A DNA stretch of 55,510 bases from Candidatus Daviesbacteria bacterium (lineage in GTDB: Bacteria > Patescibacteriota > Microgenomatia > Daviesbacterales > UBA10151). Below are positions 2,352 through 14,289 of the stretch, one piece after another. The translations under genes and the position numbers were made by a program. The DNA lies in NCBI GenBank assembly GCA_016176465.1, contig JACOXD010000007.1, positions 1-55,510 on the forward strand. Reading direction: 5' to 3'. The notes under the pieces were generated by a model. The model saw nothing but the letters and a program-made list of their open reading frames with translations, did not search any database and was not told the origin of the DNA. Within the stretch, counting starts at the first letter, position 1. The number at the start of each line of letters is the position of its first letter.

Positions 2352-3020
2352 TTATTCCATAGTTAGATGTTTAATTTCTTCCAACTTTTTTCCATAATCT
2401 ATTTGGTCTAAAACAAACTTTTCATAATCTTTCCCAGATTTAAAGAAACTTAAAACAGGTTCTGAATCTACCAACTCTGACTGACCTTTTATGTAATCTG
2501 GTAAAGAGGACCAAGGGTAAGATAAAAGCTCCACCTCTTTAATCACAAAAGATACTACTGGATTTAAGTGAATATATCTTGAGAGATGGATAAGCTGCTC
2601 ATTACTCTCAATATGTACAGCTTTAAACACTCCTTGTAAGATTGGGCCAACCCTCTTATTTTTAGTATTAATATATTTAGTATAGCTATTGCTAAGTTTA
2701 CTTAGAAAAATAGTAATGCCATTATCTATTGTTTGTTGTAGTAGGAAGTGAAAATGATTGGGCATAAGGACAAAGCTCACTATTTTAACCAGTACTTTAT
2801 TTTTAATAGTAAGCTGATCTAAAAGTGTCTCTCTGTCTTTTTTTGAAAGCTCTTTAAATCTGGACAATCTCACAGGTGGTTTTTCAAAACGATAGTAGGA
2901 TAAAGCAAGTAACGCTTGCGCGTAATCGGATTGATGGTGAAATATTGGTTGCCTTGCTACACCTCGGTTGTAAACATGATAATACTCTCCTGTTGCAAGT
3001 GGCACTCTTTTGTCTGCCAT
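2352..3020 (-). CDS. Y1 HUH transposase, IS200-like / REP-associated (RAYT-like), copy 1
   Basis: 222 aa with YHVYNRG near the N-terminus, an HUH motif in LMPNHFHFLLQQ, a Tyr-containing SNSYTKYINTK, and RVGPILQGVFKAV and SRYIHLNPV blocks. About half its residues are shared with the copies at 18027 and 51669 (by eye). It is flanked by inverted hairpins. Confidence 0.85.
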   Translation of the reverse strand: MADKRVPLATGEYYHVYNRGVARQPIFHHQSDYAQALLALSYYRFEKPPVRLSRFKELSKKDRETLLDQLTIKNKVLVKIVSFVLMPNHFHFLLQQTIDNGITIFLSKLSNSYTKYINTKNKRVGPILQGVFKAVHIESNEQLIHLSRYIHLNPVVSFVIKEVELLSYPWSSLPDYIKGQSELVDSEPVLSFFKSGKDYEKFVLDQIDYGKKLEEIKHLTME

Positions 3021-3669: not shown

Positions 3670-4083
3670 TTAGCTTACTCGATGACTATATATGTCTACA
3701 TCTAACTCAGCATTGTATTCTGCAATTTCTTTTAAGATTTTTTTATCAATATGAAGCCCAGAATTGTAGTCTTTCATATATATAGCGCATCCAAACTCGA
3801 TGAGGCATTTTTCCGCAACATCGAGTATCGCTGCCTTGTAAGGACGTAGCGTTTCAAGTAAAAAGCTTAAATGTTTTTCTACTGACTCTGTGATTGGTAA
3901 TGATGACGTTAATTTCCATGTATTCTCTCTAATAATTACTTTTCCCTTTCCAAAGGGCTTAGTGCTTCCTTTTACCCACGCTTCAGTTGGCTTAAGTCCA
4001 ATCTTTTGTGTTAGGTGTTCAGGGGAAGATGTAAAATCGTATATCGCAAACCATACATACGTCTTATCTTTCGCATTTTCCAT
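3670..4083 (-). CDS. putative immunity protein for tip B (DUF4279-like)
   Basis: 137 aa, starting 15 nt after the tip-B stop. The pattern FAIYDFTSSPEHLTQKIGLKPTEAWVKG...W.L.S...LDVDIY resembles DUF4279 proteins common in polymorphic-toxin loci (recollection, not searched). Confidence 0.55.
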   Translation of the reverse strand: MENAKDKTYVWFAIYDFTSSPEHLTQKIGLKPTEAWVKGSTKPFGKGKVIIRENTWKLTSSLPITESVEKHLSFLLETLRPYKAAILDVAEKCLIEFGCAIYMKDYNSGLHIDKKILKEIAEYNAELDVDIYSHRVS

Positions 4084-4097
4084 ATTCTAAGAGTATA

Positions 4098-4910
4098 TCA
4101 GAAATCTTTAATATTAAGGCCAGTTGGCTCTCCAGGGCCTTGTCCATCTCTTGGCTTCTGATAGATATTTCCATCTTTATCTTTGAAGAGATCGTACTTG
4201 CTGCTTCCTTTACCTTTAATTTGATGTATATTTTCACCGCCCTTTTGCAGCATTTTTATTTCTCCTTCAGACAATTTTGTGAATTGTTTAGAAGTATCAA
4301 GTACTTCATCAGCTACTTTAGCAACTCTTCCTACCTGCTTGATTGCTCCTATTGAAACAAAAGGTATACCTATACTAACAACATCTAGTGCAGCTCCACC
4401 CCAATTGCAATTAGATAAATCCTCTTGCAAAGCTACCACATCTAAGGTAGTTCCTGCTGCATCTAGCAGATACAAAAACCAAGCCTCACCAGAAGGATCA
4501 CTTCTATTTATGGGATTATTGCCAACATAAGCGTATGGACTTAATGTTTGAGGATAAGACAGTACACCCTTTACTGGGTCTTTAGTTATAAACCTGCCTG
4601 TGCTTGGATCATAGTATCTGGCTCTTAGGAAATATAAACTAGATTCTGGATCTAGCTGTTCACCTTGGAAGAGATAATTACTACCTGAAGTAGAACCAGA
4701 CCTAATATTCCCAAAAGGATCATAGTCAAAATTGGCAGTTTTAGAACCAGATGAGTTTGTTAGAAATCTTGTATTTCCTAATCCATCAACCAAAGGATAA
4801 ATCCTTGAGCTAGATCCAGAAGGTCCTTGGCTGATTAAATCTAACCCATAGGCATAGTAATTTTGGGCACTATTGCTACCATTAGTTTCTAGTAATACTT
4901 TAGATAACAT
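4098..4910 (-). CDS. displaced Rhs core plus toxin tip B, apparently intact with its own ATG
   Basis: Residues 1-140 (MLSKVLLETNGSNSAQNYYAYGLDLISQGPSGSSSRIYPLVDGLGNTRFL...RARYYDPSTGRFITKDP...NRSDPSGE) are near-identical to Rhs-1. DNA 4530..4906 matches roughly 7470..7846 at about 90% by eye. The divergent C-terminal domain ends ...IHQIKGKGSSKYDLFKDKDGNIYQKPRDGQGPGEPTGLNIKDF. Confidence 0.8.
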   Translation of the reverse strand: MLSKVLLETNGSNSAQNYYAYGLDLISQGPSGSSSRIYPLVDGLGNTRFLTNSSGSKTANFDYDPFGNIRSGSTSGSNYLFQGEQLDPESSLYFLRARYYDPSTGRFITKDPVKGVLSYPQTLSPYAYVGNNPINRSDPSGEAWFLYLLDAAGTTLDVVALQEDLSNCNWGGAALDVVSIGIPFVSIGAIKQVGRVAKVADEVLDTSKQFTKLSEGEIKMLQKGGENIHQIKGKGSSKYDLFKDKDGNIYQKPRDGQGPGEPTGLNIKDF

Positions 4911-4944
4911 ATCTGTTTCACCTTTCAGGTGTTATTATGTTATT
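4911..4944. repeat. cassette-boundary element E-B
   Basis: ATCTGTTTCACCTTTCAGGTGTTATTATGTTATT; 31/34 identical to E-C. It directly abuts the point where tip-B homology to Rhs-1 starts, and the ATG of tip B (4910..4908) lies at the junction. Confidence 0.8.
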
Positions 4945-4961
4945 AATCACACCTTAAGTAG

Positions 4962-5324
4962 CTACCGAGTGCTCTTTTCCTTTAATAAAGTTGTCATCTG
5001 CAAAAGATTTTCTGTCCAATCTGAATAACTTTTCTTATACTTTGACTCGGTGCTATTTTTAGTTTTTATTTCTTTTATCCTTTTTAAGATATGCGTTAGT
5101 TCTCTATGTCCTTTATCTACTAAACTAAGATCTATATCTTCATCATTATGATAGACATAAGAACTTACTAAACCTGCTAAAGTAGTATCCCAACCTACGA
5201 TTAAAAAAAAATAATCACTTAATGAACGATTCTCTCCTCCAGAAGAATCAGGCAAAGGGTTTTGTTCCGCTTCCTCAAATAGTTTTTTTAATTTCCTCTT
5301 ATTAATACTTTCTTTGTCGTACAT
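4962..5324 (-). CDS. putative immunity protein for tip C
   Basis: 120-aa ORF starting 3 nt after the tip-C stop. The call rests on position only; no family recognised. Confidence 0.45.
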   Translation of the reverse strand: MYDKESINKRKLKKLFEEAEQNPLPDSSGGENRSLSDYFFLIVGWDTTLAGLVSSYVYHNDEDIDLSLVDKGHRELTHILKRIKEIKTKNSTESKYKKSYSDWTENLLQMTTLLKEKSTR

Positions 5325-5327
5325 GTT

Positions 5328-5905
5328 TTAGTTATACCAGAAACTTACAGCCTTAATTGCTCCATCAATAATTTTAAAGTACCCTCCTGGATTTCCCGGA
5401 TCCCTAATTAAGAAGCCGGATGAATCATCGTTGAGTATAACCTCTTGGGCTTTATCTTTATTCTTAGAGAAAAATTCTATAGCATCGCGCGAATATTCCT
5501 CTATGGTTTTCCCGACTCCATGTTGCTTAAAATGATATTCTAATGATTCTTCTGCTGTTTTAAAAGTACTTTTATACCAACTCTTTGCGACGACTTGACT
5601 AGTTGTTCTTCCAACTTTCCCTATAGGCCCAGCAAAAGGTAATCCTGAAATCACATTAAATACTGCGCTACCAGGATCACAGTTTCTCAGATCATTATCT
5701 ATAGTCATATATTGAGCCATTAAGTATTGTGTCACCACTGGATTACTTAAAAAGGCAGCTGCACCATATAATGCGATGAGCCACACGAATTCCCCTGATG
5801 GATCAGAGAGATTAACTGGATTATTTAGAGCATATGATTAGGGATTTTGAGTTTGTGGCATAGAGTTTAATCCACTCACAGGATCCCTAGTTATAAATCT
5901 ACCTG
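5328..5905 (-). pseudogene. displaced Rhs tip C, core remnant interrupted by an in-frame TAA
   Basis: Own translation of 5905..5787: DTGRFITRDPVSGLNSMPQTQNP*SYALNNPVNLSDPSGEF, continuing into the tracked ORF 5328..5786 (VWLIALYG...). The TAA sits where the other copies have Tyr (NPYSY/NPYAY). The C-terminal domain has LEYHFKQHGVGKTIEEYSRDAIEFF (possible nuclease-type H..KHG motif, weak). Confidence 0.6.
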
Positions 5906-5906
5906 T

Positions 5907-5940
5907 ATCTGTTTCACCTTTCAGGTGTTACTGTGTTACT
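5907..5940. repeat. cassette-boundary element E-C
   Basis: ATCTGTTTCACCTTTCAGGTGTTACTGTGTTACT. It abuts the start of tip-C core homology on one side and the stop codon of a toxin remnant (5942..5940) on the other. Confidence 0.8.
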
Positions 5941-6033
5941 CATTTAAAATCTTTAATATTATAACCGATTGGCTCTCCAGGGCCAGAACCATCTGTAATA
6001 AATTACCTTCCCACTTGATGGGCGGGAATTCAC
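5940..6033 (-). pseudogene. frameshifted 3' remnant of a tip-B-like toxin domain
   Basis: Own translation gives ...DGSGPGEPIGYNIKDFK* (compare tip B ...DGQGPGEPTGLNIKDF*). Upstream, SSGKVIYYR is in another frame (compare DKDGNIYQKPR). DNA 5943..5995 aligns with 4098..4150. Confidence 0.5.
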
Positions 6034-6061
6034 AATTTGAGTTTAGATTTTAATATGTTTC

Positions 6062-6427
6062 TTATCTAATGATGACTTCCATTGTATCTATATTCGGTGA
6101 TCCCTGCATTGGTGCTCCATCCATTCTTACAAACTCTAACTCATCTATTTTCCCTTTTATAATATGTAATAAAATTAATATTGGCCCTCCGCCACCATCT
6201 TTTGTCCTTCCCTCTACCGGCACCCGTTCCTTTACTATAGCTTCTTCTCCTAAAACGTCTTCAAACTCTATACTTCCATAATTGTCTTTATATTCTGTTA
6301 ATGTTCTAACCTTACAATTTTTTATTTGTTGCCTTAGCTCGTCTCTACCAGGAAATGGACATTCCAATAACTTTTGTAAAACTTGTACTTCAAATTCATT
6401 TAATTTTCTATAAGTTTTTTTAATCAT
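6062..6427 (-). CDS. putative immunity protein (DUF6984-like) left next to a truncated toxin
   Basis: 121 aa. Its ATG overlaps the TGA of the upstream toxin remnant (ATGA). The pattern ...VPVEGRTKDGGGGPILILLHIIKGKIDELEFVRMDG resembles immunity-type proteins of polymorphic-toxin loci (recollection). Confidence 0.5.
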   Translation of the reverse strand: MIKKTYRKLNEFEVQVLQKLLECPFPGRDELRQQIKNCKVRTLTEYKDNYGSIEFEDVLGEEAIVKERVPVEGRTKDGGGGPILILLHIIKGKIDELEFVRMDGAPMQGSPNIDTMEVIIR

Positions 6428-6528: not shown

Positions 6529-6557
6529 AGTGAAAGCTTATTAAGTGAAAGCTTATT
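6528..6557. repeat. perfect 15-bp tandem duplication (AAGTGAAAGCTTATT x2) abutting the hairpin
   Basis: Direct reading of 6528..6542 and 6543..6557. The related single-copy sequence next to RAYT copy 1 is AGCGAGGCTATT. Confidence 0.85.
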
Positions 6558-6660
6558 ACACCTGGAAGGTGTAACAGGATGGTCACCTGCCAACTTTATA
6601 TACACTTTCTTCTAAAGTTAGATGTTTTATCTCTTCAAGTTTTCTCCCATTCTATGCCTT
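6555..6660 (-). pseudogene. 3' fragment of a RAYT-like gene with its hairpin (TTACACCTGGAAGGTGTAA at 6556..6574)
   Basis: 6555..6608 is identical (54/54) to 2300..2353. Beyond that the minus strand encodes GRKLEEIKHLTLEE (compare RAYT1 C-terminus GKKLEEIKHLTME*). Nothing of the catalytic part remains. Confidence 0.7.
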
Positions 6661-6706
6661 CTTTGATCAGTTGGTAAACCCGATTTTTTATCAATCAAGA
6701 TAAAAA

Positions 6707-7015
6707 CTATTCTTTAGTTGAATTATCGAGTAAATAGCGAAAAAACTTTGGATCTTTAATATGGTATAGAATATGCCTAAATTCTTCCCCAGTTTCTAGA
6801 AGTAAATCGTATATTTCCTTATTACTTAAATTTTGTTGGGTTAATTTTGGTAATTGCTCTTGTATAAATTTATTAAAAGATTCTTCTAGGTCTAGAAAAG
6901 CGTGTGCAAGTGTCCAAGCTTCTTTGCTTTCATCCTCATCGTACCGTGTAACTTCAGGAAGTTTTGAAAGTCGTTCTGCAATTTGTTTGTACTTTCTGGC
7001 GTATGTAGATATAAT
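6707..7015 (-). CDS. candidate immunity gene of Rhs-1, an ORF with no ATG/GTG/TTG
   Basis: Own translation, absent from the ORF track. The frame is open from 7033 to the TAG at 6709..6707: (NFKKEL)IISTYARKYKQIAERLSKLPEVTRYDEDESKEAWTLAHAFLDLEESFNKFIQEQLPKLTQQNLSNKEIYDLLLETGEEFRHILYHIKDPKFFRYLLDNSTKE*. The only start-like codons near the 5' end are ATT (7015..7013, overlapping the Rhs TAA) and ATA. AGGAG lies at 7022..7018. Confidence 0.35.
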   Translation of the reverse strand: MISTYARKYKQIAERLSKLPEVTRYDEDESKEAWTLAHAFLDLEESFNKFIQEQLPKLTQQNLSNKEIYDLLLETGEEFRHILYHIKDPKFFRYLLDNSTKE

Positions 7016-10000
7016 TAACTCCTTCTTAAAATTTCATCAATTGCATTTATTTGTTGTTGAAAATTGCGAATTTCTTTTTCCATAGAGCTTGTAAAACCCC
7101 CTACCGATTGAGCTTCTTTAATTTTTTGAAGGTGCTCAATAATCAGCTTCTGTAGACTTGCTCGAGCTTTTTGAAGCGAGTCTGAACCGTTAGTGATTAA
7201 TTGTTTTTCGAACTGCCTAACTTGGTTTTCAGTAAAACTTAAGGTCTCATCAAGGATCTTACCAGTTTTATTTACCTTGGTCAAACCGGCGGGTAAAGGA
7301 GTCAGTACTCCGATCAAATCCCAAACTACTGCATTGCTATCACAATTCCTAATATCATTAGCTAAGATAGCCAAATCAGCAGCGGTTAGAAGAATTCCTG
7401 CTATTATTAATGGAGCTATTTCTCCTGCAGGGTCAGATAAATTAACAGGATTATTGACAACATAACTATAAGGATTCAAGGTTTGGGGATTTTGCAGTAT
7501 TCCTTTAATTGGATCCCTAGTTATAAATCTTCCTGTTACAGGGTCATAATACCTTGCTCTTAGGAAGTAGAGGTTTGATTCTGGGTCTAGCTGTTCCCCT
7601 TTGAATAAGTAATTACTCCCTGATCCTGAATTTGTTCTAATATTTCCAAATGGATCATAATCAAAACTGGCAGTTTTAGATCCTGAAGAATTGACCAAAA
7701 ATCTGGTATTTCCTAATCCATCAACTAAAGGATAAATCCTTGAGCTAGATCCAGAAGGACCTTGGCTGATTAAGCCTAACCCATAGGTATAGTAATTTTG
7801 GGCACTGTTACTACCATTGGTTTCTATTAATACTTTAGATAAAGATCCTGAAATATCATTTACAAACCTGGTTGTAGTTGTCCCTTTAACTTTTTGCAAC
7901 CTATTCCCTAATCCATCATAAGTAAAGGTAGTAGTATTTGCTCCTGATTGGTTTGGACCACCCTTATAATAATTAATTACCCCATCATATTCTCCTAAAA
8001 ATAAATCAATATAAGAATCTCCATCTATATTGATAAAAGATGGAGTGCTATTGCTGCCAATATCTAAATTGGAGTAGGTGGCGCTTACAAGCTGGAATGA
8101 TGGGGAAGATTTGTTTCCTATATTTCTATAAAAGCTTACTTTCCCATCAGACTTTCCAACAAACATATCCAAATCTAAATCTTTATCAAAGTCAACAAAT
8201 GCTGGTTTGCTTGATGTGCCTATATCAATTCCTGCAAAAAGTGTTGTATCCACACTAAAACTTGGGTTAGTTGAGGAGCCTGTGTTCCTATAGAATTTGA
8301 CAGTTCCACTATACTCGCCGCTGACTAGATCAAAGTCTCCATCACTGTCGATATCCACAAAACTTGGGTTGCTGTATGATCCTATATCTAATCCTCCATA
8401 TTTCGTTGACTCCTGGACAAATGATGGTGAATTTTTATCGCCGTTGTTTTTATAAAGGTAAAAAACCCCGCTGCTGTTTCCAATAAACAAATCTAGATCA
8501 GTATCCCCATCAATATCCACAAATGAAGGGGCACTCCTTGAGCCTACGTCAATATTTAAGTATCTATCACTCACCTTTGTATAAGATGGTGATGTGTTTG
8601 TTCCATTATTTTGATAAAACTCAATATAACCATCACTATCTCCAATAAATAAATCCAAATCAGAGTCTCCATCTATATCTACAAAAGTTGGGCTAGAATA
8701 ACTCCCAACATCAATATTGGAAAATTTACTACTTGAAATAGTAAATGATGGTTCTGGATTAGGCAGGGTTGTTGATGCTGAAACTAAGCGATCCTCAAAA
8801 TCATAACTTAAGTCTTTAGTACCTAAATCTCCTGTTTGAGAACTTAAGTTGCCGTTTCCATCATATGAAATAGTGCTACCCCCTGTTTTAATTAACTGAC
8901 TATCTTCGTCGTACTCATAAATTATCTCAGTCTCATTTATTTTTTGAAGTTTCCTATTATCTACTTTATCAAAATTATATGAGTATTTTTGGTTATTTGG
9001 ATAAATAGCTTGGGCTAATCTACCTAACAAGTCATAGCTATATTGGGTTATTAGCGCTGTGCTAGATTCTTGAGCAAAAGCAATTTGAGGAGAAAATATA
9101 TCCTTAATTTGATCTACTGCCCCTTGAATTAATTTAGCAAAAGTTTTTAACTGTTGATCGAGTGAAGCAGAGGAACCCACTTGAACGTTGAAAGGACCAA
9201 AAACATTATTATCCTCATTGCTCTCAGTTATACTCCTAGATCTATCAACAACAGCCCAAATATTGTGGGTACCAGCGGTGGAGAAGTCCTCATAAGTCTC
9301 AGTAACTGTAGTTTCCGAACCTGCAGCCAAACCATTAGTATATGAAACACTATCATTGTATGATCCAAAGTCTGGCGCTGTCGAACGATCATAGTAAATA
9401 CCTACTCTAATATATGTACCGCTTGGCACAGAAGTTGTCCCTTGGTTTTTAATAGTTACCTTAATGTCAAAATCCTGATTTGGAGCTGGGTTGGGAATAG
9501 TTAAAGATATTCCTGTAACAATTAAATCAGGCTTATCAGCGGGTGTAGGGCTAGGAGAAGGAGATGGACTTGCACTAGGGCTTGGAGAAGGTGAGGGTGA
9601 TGGGCTGGGTGAAGCTGAAGGTGATGGAGTGGGAGTAGAACTCGGTGAAGGAGAAGGGCTGATGCTAGGACTTGGGGACGGCGTAGGACTAATCGATGGA
9701 CTTGGTGATGGACTTGGTGAGGGCGCTGCTATTACAAAAGCTCCCTCCTCAGTGGATTGAGTGACATTACCAAGTGAGTCTCTTTCGTAAGTGTATTTAG
9801 CCAAAATCTGATTTTGGGAATTAAGATAAGCTAGGCTGGCTAATCTATTTGCGCTATCGTATCCATATTGGCTACTGATTCCATTAGGCAAGTTTTTAGC
9901 CTGCAAAAGATTATTTTTATTGTAAGAGTATGTTGTAACTTGGTTGTTCCAATCAGAAACTGTAGTCAACCTATTTTTGTCATCAAAGGTATATTTAACT

Positions 10001-13000
10001 ACCTTACTACCAGGATATGTCACCTGTGTCAGATTTCCAAGTAAATCATAAAGATAACTAATGGTTTGAGCATATGGATTTTTAGCAGATAAAAGCTGAT
10101 CATATTTATTGTAGGTATAAGTTGTGGTGCCTGATGGATCAACTATCTGAGTTAGATTTCCCCTCGGATCATAAGTATAAGTGACACTAGTACTGTTAGG
10201 GTAAGTAATTTTGCCTAATCTATTTAATGAGTCATAGCTATACTGAGTAGTTATCTGCTTTGCATCAATTCTTTTGCTAATATTTCCGTTTGCATCATAT
10301 TCCCATTTTGTAGTTTTACTTTGTGGAGTAACTGAATCCTTTTGTCTGTTGAGCACATCAAAGCTATGTCTTGTTTTCCTCCCAAGCGCATCGGTGATAA
10401 TCTCTAAGTTTTGATAATTATCATAATCATAGCTAGTCCCCTGACCTAGCGCATCCGTAACAGAAACTAAACTTCCCAGAGTGTTATATGTGTACAATGT
10501 CTCTCCGCCATTTGGCAGTCGAACCTTAATTAAACGACCCTCTAAATCATATGTGTTATTTATAGTTCCAGCTGCAGTTGTTTCTGATAAAAGATTACCA
10601 CTGTTATCATAGCTAAACGTTACTTGCTTACTTTCTTGATCAGTTTTTTTAACTAATCTCCCCAATGAGTCGTACTCATATATTATTTGATGCCCAAGAG
10701 GCTCCTCCTCTTTTATAATTTCCCCAAAACCATTTCTTGTAAAAGAAGTAACTTTGTTTAAGTGATTTGTCGATGAGCTAATCTCACCTAAGCTGTCATA
10801 GGAAAATTTAGTTAATCTTCCTGCCTCATCTATTTGAGAAAGGTTACCTTTAGGATCGTAGATAAACTTTGTTTCTTTAGCTAAGTTTCCATTAACGTTT
10901 TTATATCCATCATCCAAGATTCTAGTAATATTATTTTTATTATCATATTCATAGGTAATTTTTATATTAGAAGGGTCTGTTCGGGATAGCACATTTCCAT
11001 TTGCATCATAAGTAAAGGTTGTTTTATTTAATTTCGGATCAGTAACAGTTATGGGTGAGTACTCTTTGTCATAGCTATATTTAGTAACTCCACCCAAAGG
11101 ATCATAACTTTCCAATACTCTTGCTTTATCATCGTAAACCATCTTGGAAGTTCTCCCATTACTATCAGTTATATTTATAGCTTTATTTGTTTCATCATAG
11201 TTAAAGGAAGAAACTTTACCTGAAGCATCTTTTTGAGTGGCGACCTTGCCCTCCTCTGTATAGGTATTTGTAATTATTGTTTGGCCTAATTTATTGATAA
11301 CTGTGGAGAGTTTGTTGTCTTCAGTATAAGTATATTTGGTCACTCCCCCATTTGGATCAGTGACTGAAATTAGATTACCAATGGAATCATATCCATAATT
11401 AACAGCTCTGTTAGTCCAATCAGAAACAGCACTTACTAGGTTTAATGAGTTGTAAGATAGGACTAAATTGTGTCCTTGATTATCAGAAATAGTAGTTAAT
11501 TTACCTGATGGATCATAGCTATAGTTTATTGAATTGCCATTTTTGTCTACTTGTTTAACTAATTTAAGATCTACCCCGAAGATTAGCTGAACCTGATTCT
11601 TGAGGGTAGCTGTGAACGTACCATCATTATTTGGGAAAAGTGATGAGTTATAAGCCTCATCATCAGGTACATACCCAGTTGTACACGATGATAGATTAAA
11701 GGTTTCTCTTCCAGAAGGTGTCTCAAGAGCCATATATTTGGGATACCAGCCAGAGATAGGTCCTGAAGAACAATTTCCTACTTTATAACCAGGCTTTAGA
11801 TCTGTTAATTTTGCTGGAATAAAAGTCCATCCTTTACCTATGCCTTGCTGGCTACTGGAAAATGATGAGTAGTCTCTTCCAAAAGCTAAGCTCAAATCGC
11901 CAGGGGTCGGAAAACTCATATCAACCGATGAGGTTGAATAGGCACCAATACTTCTAAACAAATTAGCATCCAGTGCTACTGATTCATAAGTTTGTCCACC
12001 TTGTGAGAAAGACCAGTGTATTTCGCTATTCGATTCAGGAACAGCTTCAGAAGCAGTTTTTGTGGAGGTGGCAGAACCATCATCGATTTTATACTCATTA
12101 GGAGTAAAATAATCAACTCCACCGGTTATCCGCCATTGTGTCCCATTTGGCGCACTCTGGAAAGGAGATGTTAGTCTTGGTATTTCATTTGGAGTATCAA
12201 CAAACTTAGGTTGGTGATCTTTAGCCCATTCGAAGTTATTTAAAATACCGTTATCTTTAATCCATTTAACCACTGCTACAACCTTTGCTAGCTGTTTTAC
12301 CTCTTGATAGGAAGGAATCTCATTTGCAAATAAATCATAGTTTTGTGTTTGATGATTGGCAAAATCAATTGCTGCTTTATTCCATGCCGGATCATTACTG
12401 GACAAAATTCCTTCTGTTTCCACTTGCATTTTAACTTGATCAAACACAAAAGTAGTATTTGGGTCATCTTTTTTTAAAGTTACTAGTTGAGGAGAAATCC
12501 ACCAGCGGGAACCGCTTTTTTTATTAGGATCAGGATTATTGGCAGTAAACATATCCAAAACAGATTTATAACCAGGAACAGAAGAACTTATTTTTTGACC
12601 ATTGGCAAAATACCCTTGGACATATTGTTTCATCATATAATCCGCATCCAGTAGATCTTTTCCAAATTGGGTATCCTCTACACCACCTCCGAAAATCACA
12701 TTCATATTAGGATCACCAAAAGCATTATTGTTATCCTTGAATTCTATGCTTACAGTAGGAGTTGAGTTATTAAAAACAACTGCTCTGATTGCTACTGCCA
12801 GATCATCTTTGTCAAATTTTGGTAGTGAGGTATTTTTCACTCCTACAAAAACAATCTTATCTTGAGTGTTATCATAGTAAGCTCCCCTTATATCTGACAT
12901 ATCAGCCAAAAATGTTGCTGCCTCATCAAGTGCTACCCCTCCAACTCTTGTAGAGATATAAGCTTTTAATTCATCTAAAGATTGTGCTTGGCAGATGTTA

Positions 13001-13107
13001 TCTGCGGCGTGGACGGATCTTGGACTAAATGGTAGGGATACTAGAGGTAAGCTAGGTATTAAAATTAAAAGCACACTTAAAAATAGAGCAATTAGCTTAT
13101 GAAACAA
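7015..13107 (-). CDS. Rhs/YD-repeat polymorphic toxin (Rhs-1), 2030 aa, Sec signal peptide
   Basis: Signal peptide MFHKLIALFLSVLLILIPSLPLVSLPFSPRSVHA/AD, then an unknown domain of about 400 aa, then many YD repeats (YSYDPSGKL, YGYDSIGNL, YTYTEDNKL...). These are followed by a Pro/Ser linker, a CARDB-like module (DLIVTGISL...NNVFGPFNVQV), more YD repeats and six FG-GAP/VCBS-like units (FVDIDGDSDLDLFIG...). The Rhs core follows (...RARYYDPVTGRFITRDP...NPVNLSDPAGE, DPAGE at 7434..7420), then a 134-aa C-terminal tip. Confidence 0.95.
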   Translation of the reverse strand: MFHKLIALFLSVLLILIPSLPLVSLPFSPRSVHAADNICQAQSLDELKAYISTRVGGVALDEAATFLADMSDIRGAYYDNTQDKIVFVGVKNTSLPKFDKDDLAVAIRAVVFNNSTPTVSIEFKDNNNAFGDPNMNVIFGGGVEDTQFGKDLLDADYMMKQYVQGYFANGQKISSSVPGYKSVLDMFTANNPDPNKKSGSRWWISPQLVTLKKDDPNTTFVFDQVKMQVETEGILSSNDPAWNKAAIDFANHQTQNYDLFANEIPSYQEVKQLAKVVAVVKWIKDNGILNNFEWAKDHQPKFVDTPNEIPRLTSPFQSAPNGTQWRITGGVDYFTPNEYKIDDGSATSTKTASEAVPESNSEIHWSFSQGGQTYESVALDANLFRSIGAYSTSSVDMSFPTPGDLSLAFGRDYSSFSSSQQGIGKGWTFIPAKLTDLKPGYKVGNCSSGPISGWYPKYMALETPSGRETFNLSSCTTGYVPDDEAYNSSLFPNNDGTFTATLKNQVQLIFGVDLKLVKQVDKNGNSINYSYDPSGKLTTISDNQGHNLVLSYNSLNLVSAVSDWTNRAVNYGYDSIGNLISVTDPNGGVTKYTYTEDNKLSTVINKLGQTIITNTYTEEGKVATQKDASGKVSSFNYDETNKAINITDSNGRTSKMVYDDKARVLESYDPLGGVTKYSYDKEYSPITVTDPKLNKTTFTYDANGNVLSRTDPSNIKITYEYDNKNNITRILDDGYKNVNGNLAKETKFIYDPKGNLSQIDEAGRLTKFSYDSLGEISSSTNHLNKVTSFTRNGFGEIIKEEEPLGHQIIYEYDSLGRLVKKTDQESKQVTFSYDNSGNLLSETTAAGTINNTYDLEGRLIKVRLPNGGETLYTYNTLGSLVSVTDALGQGTSYDYDNYQNLEIITDALGRKTRHSFDVLNRQKDSVTPQSKTTKWEYDANGNISKRIDAKQITTQYSYDSLNRLGKITYPNSTSVTYTYDPRGNLTQIVDPSGTTTYTYNKYDQLLSAKNPYAQTISYLYDLLGNLTQVTYPGSKVVKYTFDDKNRLTTVSDWNNQVTTYSYNKNNLLQAKNLPNGISSQYGYDSANRLASLAYLNSQNQILAKYTYERDSLGNVTQSTEEGAFVIAAPSPSPSPSPSISPTPSPSPSISPSPSPSSTPTPSPSASPSPSPSPSPSPSASPSPSPSPTPADKPDLIVTGISLTIPNPAPNQDFDIKVTIKNQGTTSVPSGTYIRVGIYYDRSTAPDFGSYNDSVSYTNGLAAGSETTVTETYEDFSTAGTHNIWAVVDRSRSITESNEDNNVFGPFNVQVGSSASLDQQLKTFAKLIQGAVDQIKDIFSPQIAFAQESSTALITQYSYDLLGRLAQAIYPNNQKYSYNFDKVDNRKLQKINETEIIYEYDEDSQLIKTGGSTISYDGNGNLSSQTGDLGTKDLSYDFEDRLVSASTTLPNPEPSFTISSSKFSNIDVGSYSSPTFVDIDGDSDLDLFIGDSDGYIEFYQNNGTNTSPSYTKVSDRYLNIDVGSRSAPSFVDIDGDTDLDLFIGNSSGVFYLYKNNGDKNSPSFVQESTKYGGLDIGSYSNPSFVDIDSDGDFDLVSGEYSGTVKFYRNTGSSTNPSFSVDTTLFAGIDIGTSSKPAFVDFDKDLDLDMFVGKSDGKVSFYRNIGNKSSPSFQLVSATYSNLDIGSNSTPSFINIDGDSYIDLFLGEYDGVINYYKGGPNQSGANTTTFTYDGLGNRLQKVKGTTTTRFVNDISGSLSKVLIETNGSNSAQNYYTYGLGLISQGPSGSSSRIYPLVDGLGNTRFLVNSSGSKTASFDYDPFGNIRTNSGSGSNYLFKGEQLDPESNLYFLRARYYDPVTGRFITRDPIKGILQNPQTLNPYSYVVNNPVNLSDPAGEIAPLIIAGILLTAADLAILANDIRNCDSNAVVWDLIGVLTPLPAGLTKVNKTGKILDETLSFTENQVRQFEKQLITNGSDSLQKARASLQKLIIEHLQKIKEAQSVGGFTSSMEKEIRNFQQQINAIDEILRRS
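7957..8735 (-). repeat. six FG-GAP/VCBS-like repeat units inside Rhs-1
   Basis: Units of about 45 aa recur with N(I/L)D(V/I)GS.S.P(S/T)FVDIDGD.DLDLF.G...G....Y.N.G....PSF. Confidence 0.75.
9541..9731 (-). repeat. low-complexity Pro/Ser(Thr) linker coding repeat inside Rhs-1
   Basis: Encodes APSPSPSPSPSISPTPSPSPSISPSPSPSSTPTPSPSASPSPSPSPSPSPSASPSPSPSPTPA. It is mirrored by a spurious plus-strand ORF of GEGDGLG repeats. Confidence 0.9.
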
Positions 13108-13770
13108 TTAAGGTTTCTCCTTACTTTTTACAACTGAAGGCAGTTTTTGATCACTTTTAAGTTTTTTTACTTTTAACTCCTTTTTAATTGAGCCCATAAG
13201 CTTACTTTTATCCTTGTTTACCAATTTAGGTTCTGTAAAGATTGTTTCATCGCTTTGTGTAAAATAGTTAACTCTGGCATCAAATTGTATTGTTAAATCC
13301 TCTCCTGGGTTAATTCTTAAGTTGGGAATAACTATGGTATTTTTATCAGAGGATAAATTAGCGCTTCCTTGAAGGTTATGAATATAATTGAGTAAATTCC
13401 TTGGAATATTGGTTTCTAAAGTAATAAAGGAATACTCATTATTTGTGTTGTTATTGATTTTATACTTAAATCTAATAACCTCACCTGAGTCTATCTCTCC
13501 ATTTTTATCCAGGTCACCATTTGGTGTCAGAGAAATATCAGAATCAAGTGTTAAATTATTAGCTGGAGCAGACTCTGGTGTTAAAACCTCTTGAATCTTT
13601 TCTAAGGTAAAGTTAAATAAGTCTTCTAAAAAAAATGCTCCCACCTTGGGAGCAAAGTAAAGGGGAAAACCCAAAAGGACCACAATCATAATTAAGTAAA
13701 ATCTTAATCTATCCGAGAAGTACTTGTAGATTTTGGTCATTTTCTCCATTAACATGTCCTGACCAGACAA
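13108..13770 (-). CDS. membrane-anchored beta-sandwich-like protein, adjacent with no gap to Rhs-1 and possibly translationally coupled
   Basis: 220 aa with an N-terminal TM segment (FYLIMIVVLLGFPLYFAPKVGAFF). Its stop codon at 13108..13110 directly abuts the Rhs-1 ATG (13107). The middle part resembles DUF11/CARDB-type adhesin folds only loosely. Confidence 0.55.
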   Translation of the reverse strand: MSGQDMLMEKMTKIYKYFSDRLRFYLIMIVVLLGFPLYFAPKVGAFFLEDLFNFTLEKIQEVLTPESAPANNLTLDSDISLTPNGDLDKNGEIDSGEVIRFKYKINNNTNNEYSFITLETNIPRNLLNYIHNLQGSANLSSDKNTIVIPNLRINPGEDLTIQFDARVNYFTQSDETIFTEPKLVNKDKSKLMGSIKKELKVKKLKSDQKLPSVVKSKEKP

Positions 13771-13794
13771 TCTTAGTATAACTTTATTTGGCCG

Positions 13795-14289
13795 TCAAGA
13801 CCAGCCTTGGGATTGGTAAACAGCTAGAACTAAAACAGAAGTTGGATGATATTTAATTTGAGTCACTGCTATATAGGACTTAGCTTTTTTCTCCTTGAAT
13901 TCTATCCCTCTGTACTCACAAAGATCCCTTAAAGAATTATAAATTCTAAGTTTAATCTCAGATTGAACAGCAACTTTTGTTTCTCCAATTATTTCATGTT
14001 CAACAAAAACTCCCCTTCCATCCTCAATCTGATACCAACCTAACCCTGCCGCTATATATTTACCTGTTTCTTGAGAGCGCATTTCAGCTTTAATTACATA
14101 TAATTTATGACCAAATTCCTCCTTCGGAGTTTCATATTTTTTTGCTCTTACAACTTTGGAGCCTGGTGGAATAATTGAAGATAGTGGAATTAAATTGTAA
14201 TTGTAAACTCCAGCCACTTTTAGCGCTCCATCAAATGCTGAAAGTGTTGTTTGACCAATCCCAATCCCTTTGACTACTCTAATAACCAT
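13795..14289 (-). CDS. pdaD: pyruvoyl-dependent arginine decarboxylase
   Basis: 164 aa. TLSAFDGALKVAGVYNYNLIPLSSIIPPGSKVV matches the PdaD/AaxB self-cleavage region (…SS(I)…PP), and the size is typical. Confidence 0.8.
   Translation of the reverse strand: MVIRVVKGIGIGQTTLSAFDGALKVAGVYNYNLIPLSSIIPPGSKVVRAKKYETPKEEFGHKLYVIKAEMRSQETGKYIAAGLGWYQIEDGRGVFVEHEIIGETKVAVQSEIKLRIYNSLRDLCEYRGIEFKEKKAKSYIAVTQIKYHPTSVLVLAVYQSQGWS

Follow-up and report, generated by a model that had tools for sequence, protein, structure and literature searches.

Introduction

Shells built of YD repeats can carry receptor domains, a principle documented for SGS1, TcB and the teneurins, and in TcB a propeller lies within the shell. 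Here we describe Rhs-1, an Rhs/YD-repeat protein encoded on contig JACOXD010000007.1 of a Candidatus Daviesbacteria bacterium (assembly GCA_016176465.1), of which positions 1 to 55,510 were analysed (the window). This groundwater bacterium belongs to the Candidate Phyla Radiation (CPR), or Patescibacteria. The YD-repeat sequence of Rhs-1 is interrupted twice by domains of other kinds, and in related proteins the same two positions are either empty or filled. We put at roughly 70% the probability that Rhs-1 is a Sec-exported toxin with a normal YD cocoon, which holds exchangeable binding modules in two fixed surface loops.

Domains embedded in such shells have been described in eukaryotes and in bacteria. 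Cryo-electron microscopy of mosquito SGS1 revealed an Rhs/YD shell of Tc-like type, whose Rhs/YD sequence accommodates four inserted domains (PMC9935623). Zhang et al. (2012) described lectin domains lying within arrays of RHS repeats; they suggested that these enhance contact with the target and proposed, for some carbohydrate-binding domains, anchoring to the producer (PMC3482391). Bacterial teneurin-like proteins (TLPs) display variable adhesion domains at their N-terminus (PMC13018210). No description of the CPR family to which Rhs-1 belongs was found in the literature on Rhs proteins of Patescibacteria/CPR or on Rhs proteins with FG-GAP or CARDB domains.

Domain organization of Rhs-1

The open reading frame (ORF) of Rhs-1 occupies positions 7015..13107 of the minus strand, on which all other genes and features located below also lie; it begins with a TTG codon and encodes 2030 amino acids (aa). 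The first 34 residues (13006..13107, ending SPRSVHA/ADN), read by eye, look like a Sec-type signal peptide. They precede an N-terminal domain (aa 35-430; 11818..13005) and the first part of the YD shell, YD1 (aa 431-1127; 9727..11817), which closes with YERDSLGNVTQSTEEGAFVIA (aa 1107-1127). In the protein as a whole, RHS_repeat (PF05593) is matched in 16 stretches with an E-value of 3e-98 in Pfam, and TIGR01643 with an E-value of 5e-68 in NCBIfam.

After YD1 the shell sequence is interrupted at a position that we call slot A. It opens with a Pro/Ser linker of 63 aa (aa 1128-1190; 9538..9726), continues with a CARDB beta-sandwich (aa 1191-1310; 9178..9537; PF07705 matched in Pfam over aa 1192-1303, E 6.6e-14) and ends with a 'return element' (aa 1311-1350; 9058..9177), in which a small-x-A-Q motif (QIAFA/QESS) comes after an amphipathic helix. 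A second YD segment of 95 aa, YD2 (aa 1351-1445; 8773..9057), separates it from slot B, which is filled by a five-bladed FG-GAP propeller (aa 1446-1722; 7942..8772; FG-GAP_3, PF13517, E 8.8e-19 in Pfam). The repeat block proper (7957..8735, aa 1458-1717) is composed of five 54-aa units (1458-1511, 1512-1565, 1566-1619, 1620-1673 and 1674-1717), and DxDxDxD calcium-type loops are present in its blades.

The last YD strands and the Rhs-associated core follow (aa 1723-1896; 7420..7941), running from RARYYDP to DPAGE. The core starts at TFTYDGLGNRLQKV (aa 1727-1740), is matched by Rhs_assc_core (TIGR03696) over aa 1817-1895 (E 3e-22, NCBIfam) and ends with DPAGE (aa 1892-1896). Residues R1852, D1865, D1892, P1893 and G1895 are invariant in an alignment of 75 sequences, in which Y1854, D1855, P1856, G1859 and R1860 reach 90% conservation or more. 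By sequence, this core matches the solved cores of Rhs proteins, TcC and SGS1, and DPAGE is probably an autoproteolysis site at which the tip is cut. The polymorphic toxin tip itself comprises the last 134 residues (aa 1897-2030; 7018..7419). Rhs-1 combines three features that characterize Rhs/YD polymorphic toxins: a YD array, a core with the R/D...DPxG motif, and a variable tip accompanied by immunity and orphan genes.

An initial annotation, made from the letters of the DNA alone, had proposed the interrupted order of YD repeats, Pro/Ser linker, CARDB-like module, second YD stretch, FG-GAP block, core and tip. The Pfam and NCBIfam searches and the mapping of landmarks bear out this order, and the 63-residue linker, the DPAGE core and the 134-aa tip fall where that annotation had placed them; its CARDB-like module at 9180..9540 corresponds to about aa 1190-1309. 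Its FG-GAP block of six units has to be corrected to five, both by sequence (54-aa units) and by the predicted structure (20 strands).

A CPR family with two insertion slots

A protein search recovered about 95 close homologues of Rhs-1 at 37-55% identity. Every named one is from CPR/Patescibacteria (Gottesmanbacteria, Curtissbacteria, Saccharibacteria and Kaiserbacteria), and the closest named relative comes from Candidatus Gottesmanbacteria. Whether the insertions extend beyond this genome had been raised by the initial annotation; across these homologues the architecture proves to be lineage-wide in CPR. The common framework consists of the N-terminal domain, YD1, slot A, YD2, slot B, the core and a variable tip.

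The segments of Rhs-1 were mapped onto the homologues, and the gaps at both slots were scored in 86 aligned members. Between YD1 and YD2 the gap is 0-3 aa in 18 of the 86 and 166-680 aa in the remaining members. The members of 1511-1554 aa have an empty slot A, with YD1 and YD2 separated by 0-1 residues (...ESGSFISS-T-PQTTSFIYD...). From YD2 to the core, carriers of the FG-GAP block excepted, the gap is 1-7 aa among the aligned members (two overlap by one residue). An FG-GAP block of 275-282 aa fills slot B in eight proteins, Rhs-1 and homologues P0001-P0004, P0013, P0036 and P0059, and replaces the 3-residue loop that joins YD2 to the core where the slot is empty. Both inserts are present in P0001-P0004, which were recovered at 46-54% identity and stem from independent assemblies; in P0013 slot A is empty (3 residues) and slot B is filled. 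A gap of 245 aa at slot B of P0088 was rejected and not counted: YD2 had been mis-assigned there between two LamG-like modules.

YD2 is conserved family-wide and, in members with an empty slot A, comes straight after YD1, so that the 'second YD stretch' is an ordinary shell segment. Since YD1, YD2 and the core are joined without a break in empty-slot members, with 0-4 residues at these two points, the framework of 966 aa that they form in Rhs-1 (697 + 95 + 174) is a normal shell.

The FG-GAP propeller is the only cargo of slot B. Slot A is more varied, and Pfam matches in representative inserts comprise one or two CARDB domains, five FG-GAP repeats, Dockerin_1, three PA14 domains and Laminin_G_3, together with unnamed repeats. 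CARDB occupies slot A in about 50 homologues, and most homologues open the slot with PT/PS linkers. The return element that closes it is an amphipathic stretch of about 25 residues with small-x-A-Q at its end. Of the 69 members in which slot A is filled, 53 match this motif, and about 51 of these matches are genuine (those in P0053 and P0077 look spurious). Inserts of the PA14 and carbohydrate-binding module (CBM) types are without it.

On a rough tree of the framework (neighbour-joining on p-distances, midpoint root) the FG-GAP carriers are scattered, and P0006, the nearest neighbour of Rhs-1, is without the propeller. This distribution fits gain, loss or exchange of modules. As the slots are, family-wide, either empty or filled with differing modules of binding type, we infer that these serve as exchangeable units for adhesion or receptor binding.

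Predicted structure

An AlphaFold2 model of aa 701-1900 was built on the 75-sequence alignment, with a mean predicted local distance difference test score (pLDDT) of 85 and a predicted template modelling score (pTM) of 0.66. Regular beta-hairpins run across aa 701-1127, and the YD hairpins flanking each slot exceed a pLDDT of 90, as do YD2 and the CARDB domain. The core scores 80-95. The Pro/Ser linker, with a pLDDT below 50, would be disordered, and the helix of the return element (aa 1316-1338) is modelled at about 50. The propeller comprises 20 strands arranged in five four-stranded blades, at a pLDDT of 75-90; like closed propellers generally, it would have its N- and C-termini close together. 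The non-YD domains are thus both encoded within the YD-repeat sequence, as the slot mapping shows, and folded in the model.

The best Foldseek matches of this partial model are solved Rhs cocoons (Salmonella bongori Rhs, RhsA, Tse15, Tse5 and RhsP; E ~1e-42), and the next are teneurins, TcB-TcC and SGS1. The initial annotation had left two possibilities, namely that the inserted modules loop out of the cocoon or that no classical capsule is formed. The empty-slot homologues, the high pLDDT of the flanking hairpins and the match to known cocoons favour looping out. Of the segments in question, the second YD stretch is a regular part of the shell; CARDB and FG-GAP are matched as such in Pfam and modelled as folded domains by AlphaFold2. 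The slot pattern, structural precedent and the size of the inserts, which in homologues reach 680 aa, far beyond the capacity of a cavity that holds the tip, suggest that CARDB and the propeller lie outside the shell. On the same grounds the shell would close around the tip.

Proposed mode of action

In the scheme that we favour, Rhs-1 would be exported by Sec and its 966-aa framework would fold as a cocoon around the 134-aa tip, which the R/D...DPxG core would probably cleave off at DPAGE. Two surface loops in the C-terminal third of the shell would serve as fixed insertion slots. The one after aa 1127 would hold a flexible Pro/Ser tether, the CARDB beta-sandwich and the helical return element, and the one after aa 1445 a compact, rigid five-bladed propeller of calcium type, so that the tethered CARDB domain and the propeller may project from the core-proximal third of the shell. 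As exchangeable adhesion or receptor-binding units, these modules would set the docking surface, which may be a target or host cell or a polysaccharide. Docking through the modules would substitute for delivery machines, such as a type VI secretion system (T6SS) or TcA, that were not seen paired with Rhs-1.

Relation to described systems

The effectors of the T6SS (RhsA, RhsP, Tse5, Tse15 and the S. bongori Rhs), which are the best structural matches of Rhs-1, share with it the shell length, the core motif, a downstream immunity gene and orphan tips. Unlike these effectors, Rhs-1 has no PAAR, VgrG or prePAAR domain by Pfam and NCBIfam and carries a putative Sec signal peptide instead; its shell-inserted modules and its N-terminal domain also set it apart. 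The TcB/TcC proteins (TcdB2-TccC3, YenB/YenC2) resemble Rhs-1 in the YD cocoon, in having an FG-GAP-type propeller in the chain and in the aspartyl autoprotease core, which in TcB/TcC releases an encapsulated variable tip. Rhs-1, however, is a single chain in which no SpvB, TcdB_toxin_midN or midC domain was found by Pfam (these occur in a second protein of the window, Rhs-2, described below). Its propeller stands just before the core, whereas that of TcB/TcC stands in the N-terminal half and gates onto TcA.

SGS1 resembles Rhs-1 in its YD cocoon with an Rhs core as the plug, in core regions that can be aligned by sequence, and in the insertion of a propeller and beta-sandwiches in the YD sequence; in SGS1 the sandwiches are Ig-like and carbohydrate-binding, and all these inserts lie outside the shell (PMC9935623). 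Beyond the core the similarity is at the level of fold only (Foldseek E 3e-17). SGS1 differs in being a eukaryotic protein of 3364 aa with seven- and nine-bladed propellers, other insertion sites and transmembrane helices as cargo, and has neither the CPR-type N-terminal domain nor the exchangeable two-slot pattern. The WapA-type Sec-dependent toxins of monoderms and the bacterial TLPs share with Rhs-1 export by a signal peptide, a surface-exposed YD shell, a polymorphic toxin and variable adhesion domains (PMC13018210; see also PMC12704120). In TLPs, however, the adhesion domains are N-terminal and the shell is preceded by an FN-plug and a six-bladed NHL propeller; in Rhs-1 the modules are inside the shell sequence, and no NHL or FN match was obtained with Pfam.

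The initial annotation had set Rhs-1 against canonical Rhs/TcC proteins, in which the YD repeats lead straight to the core. A premise that such an interruption lacks precedent is not supported, given the TcB propeller, SGS1 (PMC9935623) and the proteins of Zhang et al. 2012 (PMC3482391): domains embedded in YD shells were already known, and Rhs-1 extends known biology and overturns nothing. What is new is a two-slot CPR family with a partner gene and with an N-terminal domain that has no recognised fold.

The N-terminal domain and the partner gene

The N-terminal domain is the best-conserved part of the Rhs-1 family. The initial annotation could not place this region of about 400 aa. The domain is real, but it has no Pfam or NCBIfam match, phmmer and a profile search gave nothing significant among the sequences of the Protein Data Bank (PDB), and its AlphaFold2 model (pLDDT 70) found no significant Foldseek match in the PDB or BFVD, teneurin structures included. 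A weak resemblance to DUF6531 and to the beginning of the RhsA shell is seen in its last ~40 aa. More distant relatives of the domain, with about 30% identity, occur in Chlamydiae, Acidobacteria, Verrucomicrobia, symbionts of Bathymodiolus mussels and Enterovibrio (P0097-P0108; L020-L064). Several distant ORFs with this domain have an odd order, in which an Rhs core, about 150 aa and an N-terminal-like domain precede the YD repeats.

Directly upstream of Rhs-1 lies a partner gene of 220 aa (13108..13770), whose stop abuts the Rhs-1 start. The encoded protein has an N-terminal hydrophobic anchor or signal, a DUF11-like beta-sandwich (with a weak DUF11 match) and a Lys-rich tail. In 18 of 19 CPR loci, and also in L065-L067, a homologue with 35-50% identity lies immediately upstream of the Rhs gene; the non-CPR relatives are without it.

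Toxin tip, probable immunity gene and orphan array

Tips vary across the family. That of Rhs-1 has a hydrophobic, pre-toxin-like start followed by a helical domain of 72 aa, and has no Pfam match; the 72-aa part matches the tip of an unrelated Rhs fragment in locus L071 (32%, E 1e-8). Immediately downstream, a gene of 102 codons (6707..7015) has an ATT/ATA start that overlaps the Rhs-1 stop and an AAGGAG ribosome-binding site upstream. With its non-ATG start it is missing from the standard ORF list, and a 587-nucleotide (nt) 'ORF-free' gap after Rhs-1, considered as a sign of a missing immunity gene, was rejected once this real gene was recognised within it. Its product has 193 homologues of 100-119 aa, with up to 74% identity, and in L071 and L072 a member of this family comes after the matching tip. 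In an unrelated genome of 2.7 Mb, the same small protein follows an Rhs core-plus-tip ORF whose last 72 aa match the Rhs-1 tip (32%, E 1e-8). Pairing of this family with the same tip elsewhere is the usual signature of a toxin-immunity pair, and 6707..7015 is the probable immunity gene for the Rhs-1 tip.

Further downstream, an orphan array (3670..6427) holds a DUF6984 gene (6062-6427), an orphan tip (5328-5786), an ORF of 120 aa (4962-5324), an orphan core fragment with an Ntox33 tip (4098-4910) and a DUF4279 gene (3670-4083). The orphan core shares 58% protein identity with that of Rhs-1, and 80% DNA identity with positions 7448-7800, and is likely a substrate for tip swapping. At the far end of the array an ORF of 222 aa (2352..3020) encodes an IS200-like Y1 transposase. 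An Rfam scan of the window returned tRNA-Leu only.

A split system in the same window

Three genes at 43395..50833 form a split, BC-like system. A protein of 407 aa (49610..50833) combines a signal peptide with a small number of YD strands, an Rhs core (DPSGH) and a toxin tip. It is followed by a DUF7674 gene of 130 aa and by Rhs-2 (43395..49184), a protein of 1929 aa with SpvB, FG-GAP and TcdB_midN domains and a YD shell, without a core. At its C-terminus, Rhs-2 has PS/PT linkers and a pair of repeats, each about 190 aa long. Relatives of the 407-aa type number 644, almost all of them 350-420 aa long, and the three-gene order recurs in two other loci. A BLAST comparison of Rhs-1 with Rhs-2 found no similarity between their FG-GAP blocks, and there is thus no evidence that the propeller was copied between the two loci.

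Assembly integrity and alternative explanations

The initial annotation had considered that the gene might be a chimeric misassembly of two loci, and a gene-call fusion of separate loci would produce the same appearance. The Pro/Ser linker DNA is indeed of low complexity, and assembly graphs branch at 7699-7756 and ~11330-11375. Contigs from four groundwater-metagenome runs were aligned to the Rhs-1 region. Positions 6763-13334 are contained in one contig of 6589 nt and positions 7729-13800 in another of 9713 nt, both with no differences and no joints, and single contigs from separate runs span all four suspected junctions (7950, 8740, 9180 and 9740). Moreover, the full architecture is found in four homologues and parts of it in dozens, always in frame, and 15 of 15 complete CPR loci consist of one ORF from the N-terminal domain to the core without an in-frame stop. 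The branch at 7699-7756, seen in several runs, is explained by the identity of the paralogous orphan core to this part of Rhs-1. Misassembly was rejected on the strength of the spanning contigs and the in-frame homologues, and the chance that the architecture is an artefact is negligible. Immediately beyond the immunity gene, at 6554..6763, the contigs of all four runs break or branch, which suggests strain-level variation or a repeat boundary.

Some observations weigh against reading Rhs-1 as an exported cocoon with exchangeable targeting modules. The model spans only 1200 of the 2030 residues, at a pTM of 0.66; the midpoint root nests empty-slot forms within insert-bearing forms, and the tree leaves the direction of gain or loss unsettled; one member has a dockerin in slot A, a hint that the protein is anchored to its producer and not to a target; and plain looping out leaves the conserved return element unexplained. 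In a rival reading, with which the dockerin agrees, the modules would tether the toxin to the envelope of the producer itself (S-layer, cell wall or a scaffold protein), like the wall-binding domains of Gram-positive WapA-type toxins, and would play no part in recognising a target. The membrane-anchored partner protein and the N-terminal domain could share the same tether; nearly all CPR loci have the anchor-bearing partner gene directly upstream, and a similar role was proposed by Zhang et al. 2012 for some carbohydrate-binding domains (PMC3482391). Yet the 18 empty-slot members retain both the partner gene and the N-terminal domain, so that the inserts cannot be what anchoring relies on; the cargo, broad in kind and patchy in distribution, looks more like a diversified specificity element, and the same authors suggest that embedded lectin domains boost contact with the target (PMC3482391). 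We regard producer anchoring by the modules as unlikely. The return element, for its part, resembles the end (c-region) of a signal peptide, and could be a relic or a working signal-peptide-like site of a two-chain shell, Rhs-1 being descended from, or processed into, an N-terminal half (N-terminal domain, YD1, linker and CARDB) and a C-terminal half (YD2, propeller, core and toxin) in the manner of TcB/TcC. The likeness of the motif to an AXA signal-peptidase site in most slot-A members is consistent with this idea, as is the presence in the same window of the signal-peptide-bearing 407-aa YD/core/toxin protein beside the core-less, TcB-like Rhs-2, in an arrangement that is conserved. A search with the return element and YD2 for split C-half genes matched generic YD-repeat proteins only and was uninformative. 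However, the Rhs-1 family was nowhere found in split form, the 15 complete loci being single ORFs. The return element is only moderately hydrophobic (mean best 10-aa Kyte-Doolittle value ~1.5), the topology of an internal segment after an exported domain would be wrong for signal peptidase I, the alignment of the 407-aa protein begins some 60 aa into YD2 and not at slot A, and the PA14- and CBM-type inserts do without the element altogether. A two-chain origin or processing of Rhs-1 thus appears very unlikely, less probable still than producer anchoring.

Biological implications

If Rhs-1 is an exported cocoon with exchangeable binding modules, a broader and rather doubtful extension would be that the slots form an exchangeable targeting platform for retargeting a toxin independent of secretion machines, and that the return element records or mediates the assembly of a capsule from two exported chains, which would link the family to the split BC-like system. 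Were this so, swapping of CARDB, FG-GAP, PA14, LamG and dockerin modules would retarget the toxin to different host or competitor surfaces, and receptor binding would be a second axis of polymorphism beside the toxin tip. The series of empty, single-insert and double-insert members, with insertions at defined loops, shows where a YD shell tolerates large insertions, which should help structural studies and throw light on the ways in which receptor domains come to be acquired by shells. CPR bacteria are tiny and mostly episymbiotic, and the ways in which they attach to and act on other cells are poorly known. The Rhs-1 family, which is large, conserved and by all appearances exported through Sec, is thereby a tangible candidate for a means by which they interact with other cells on contact.

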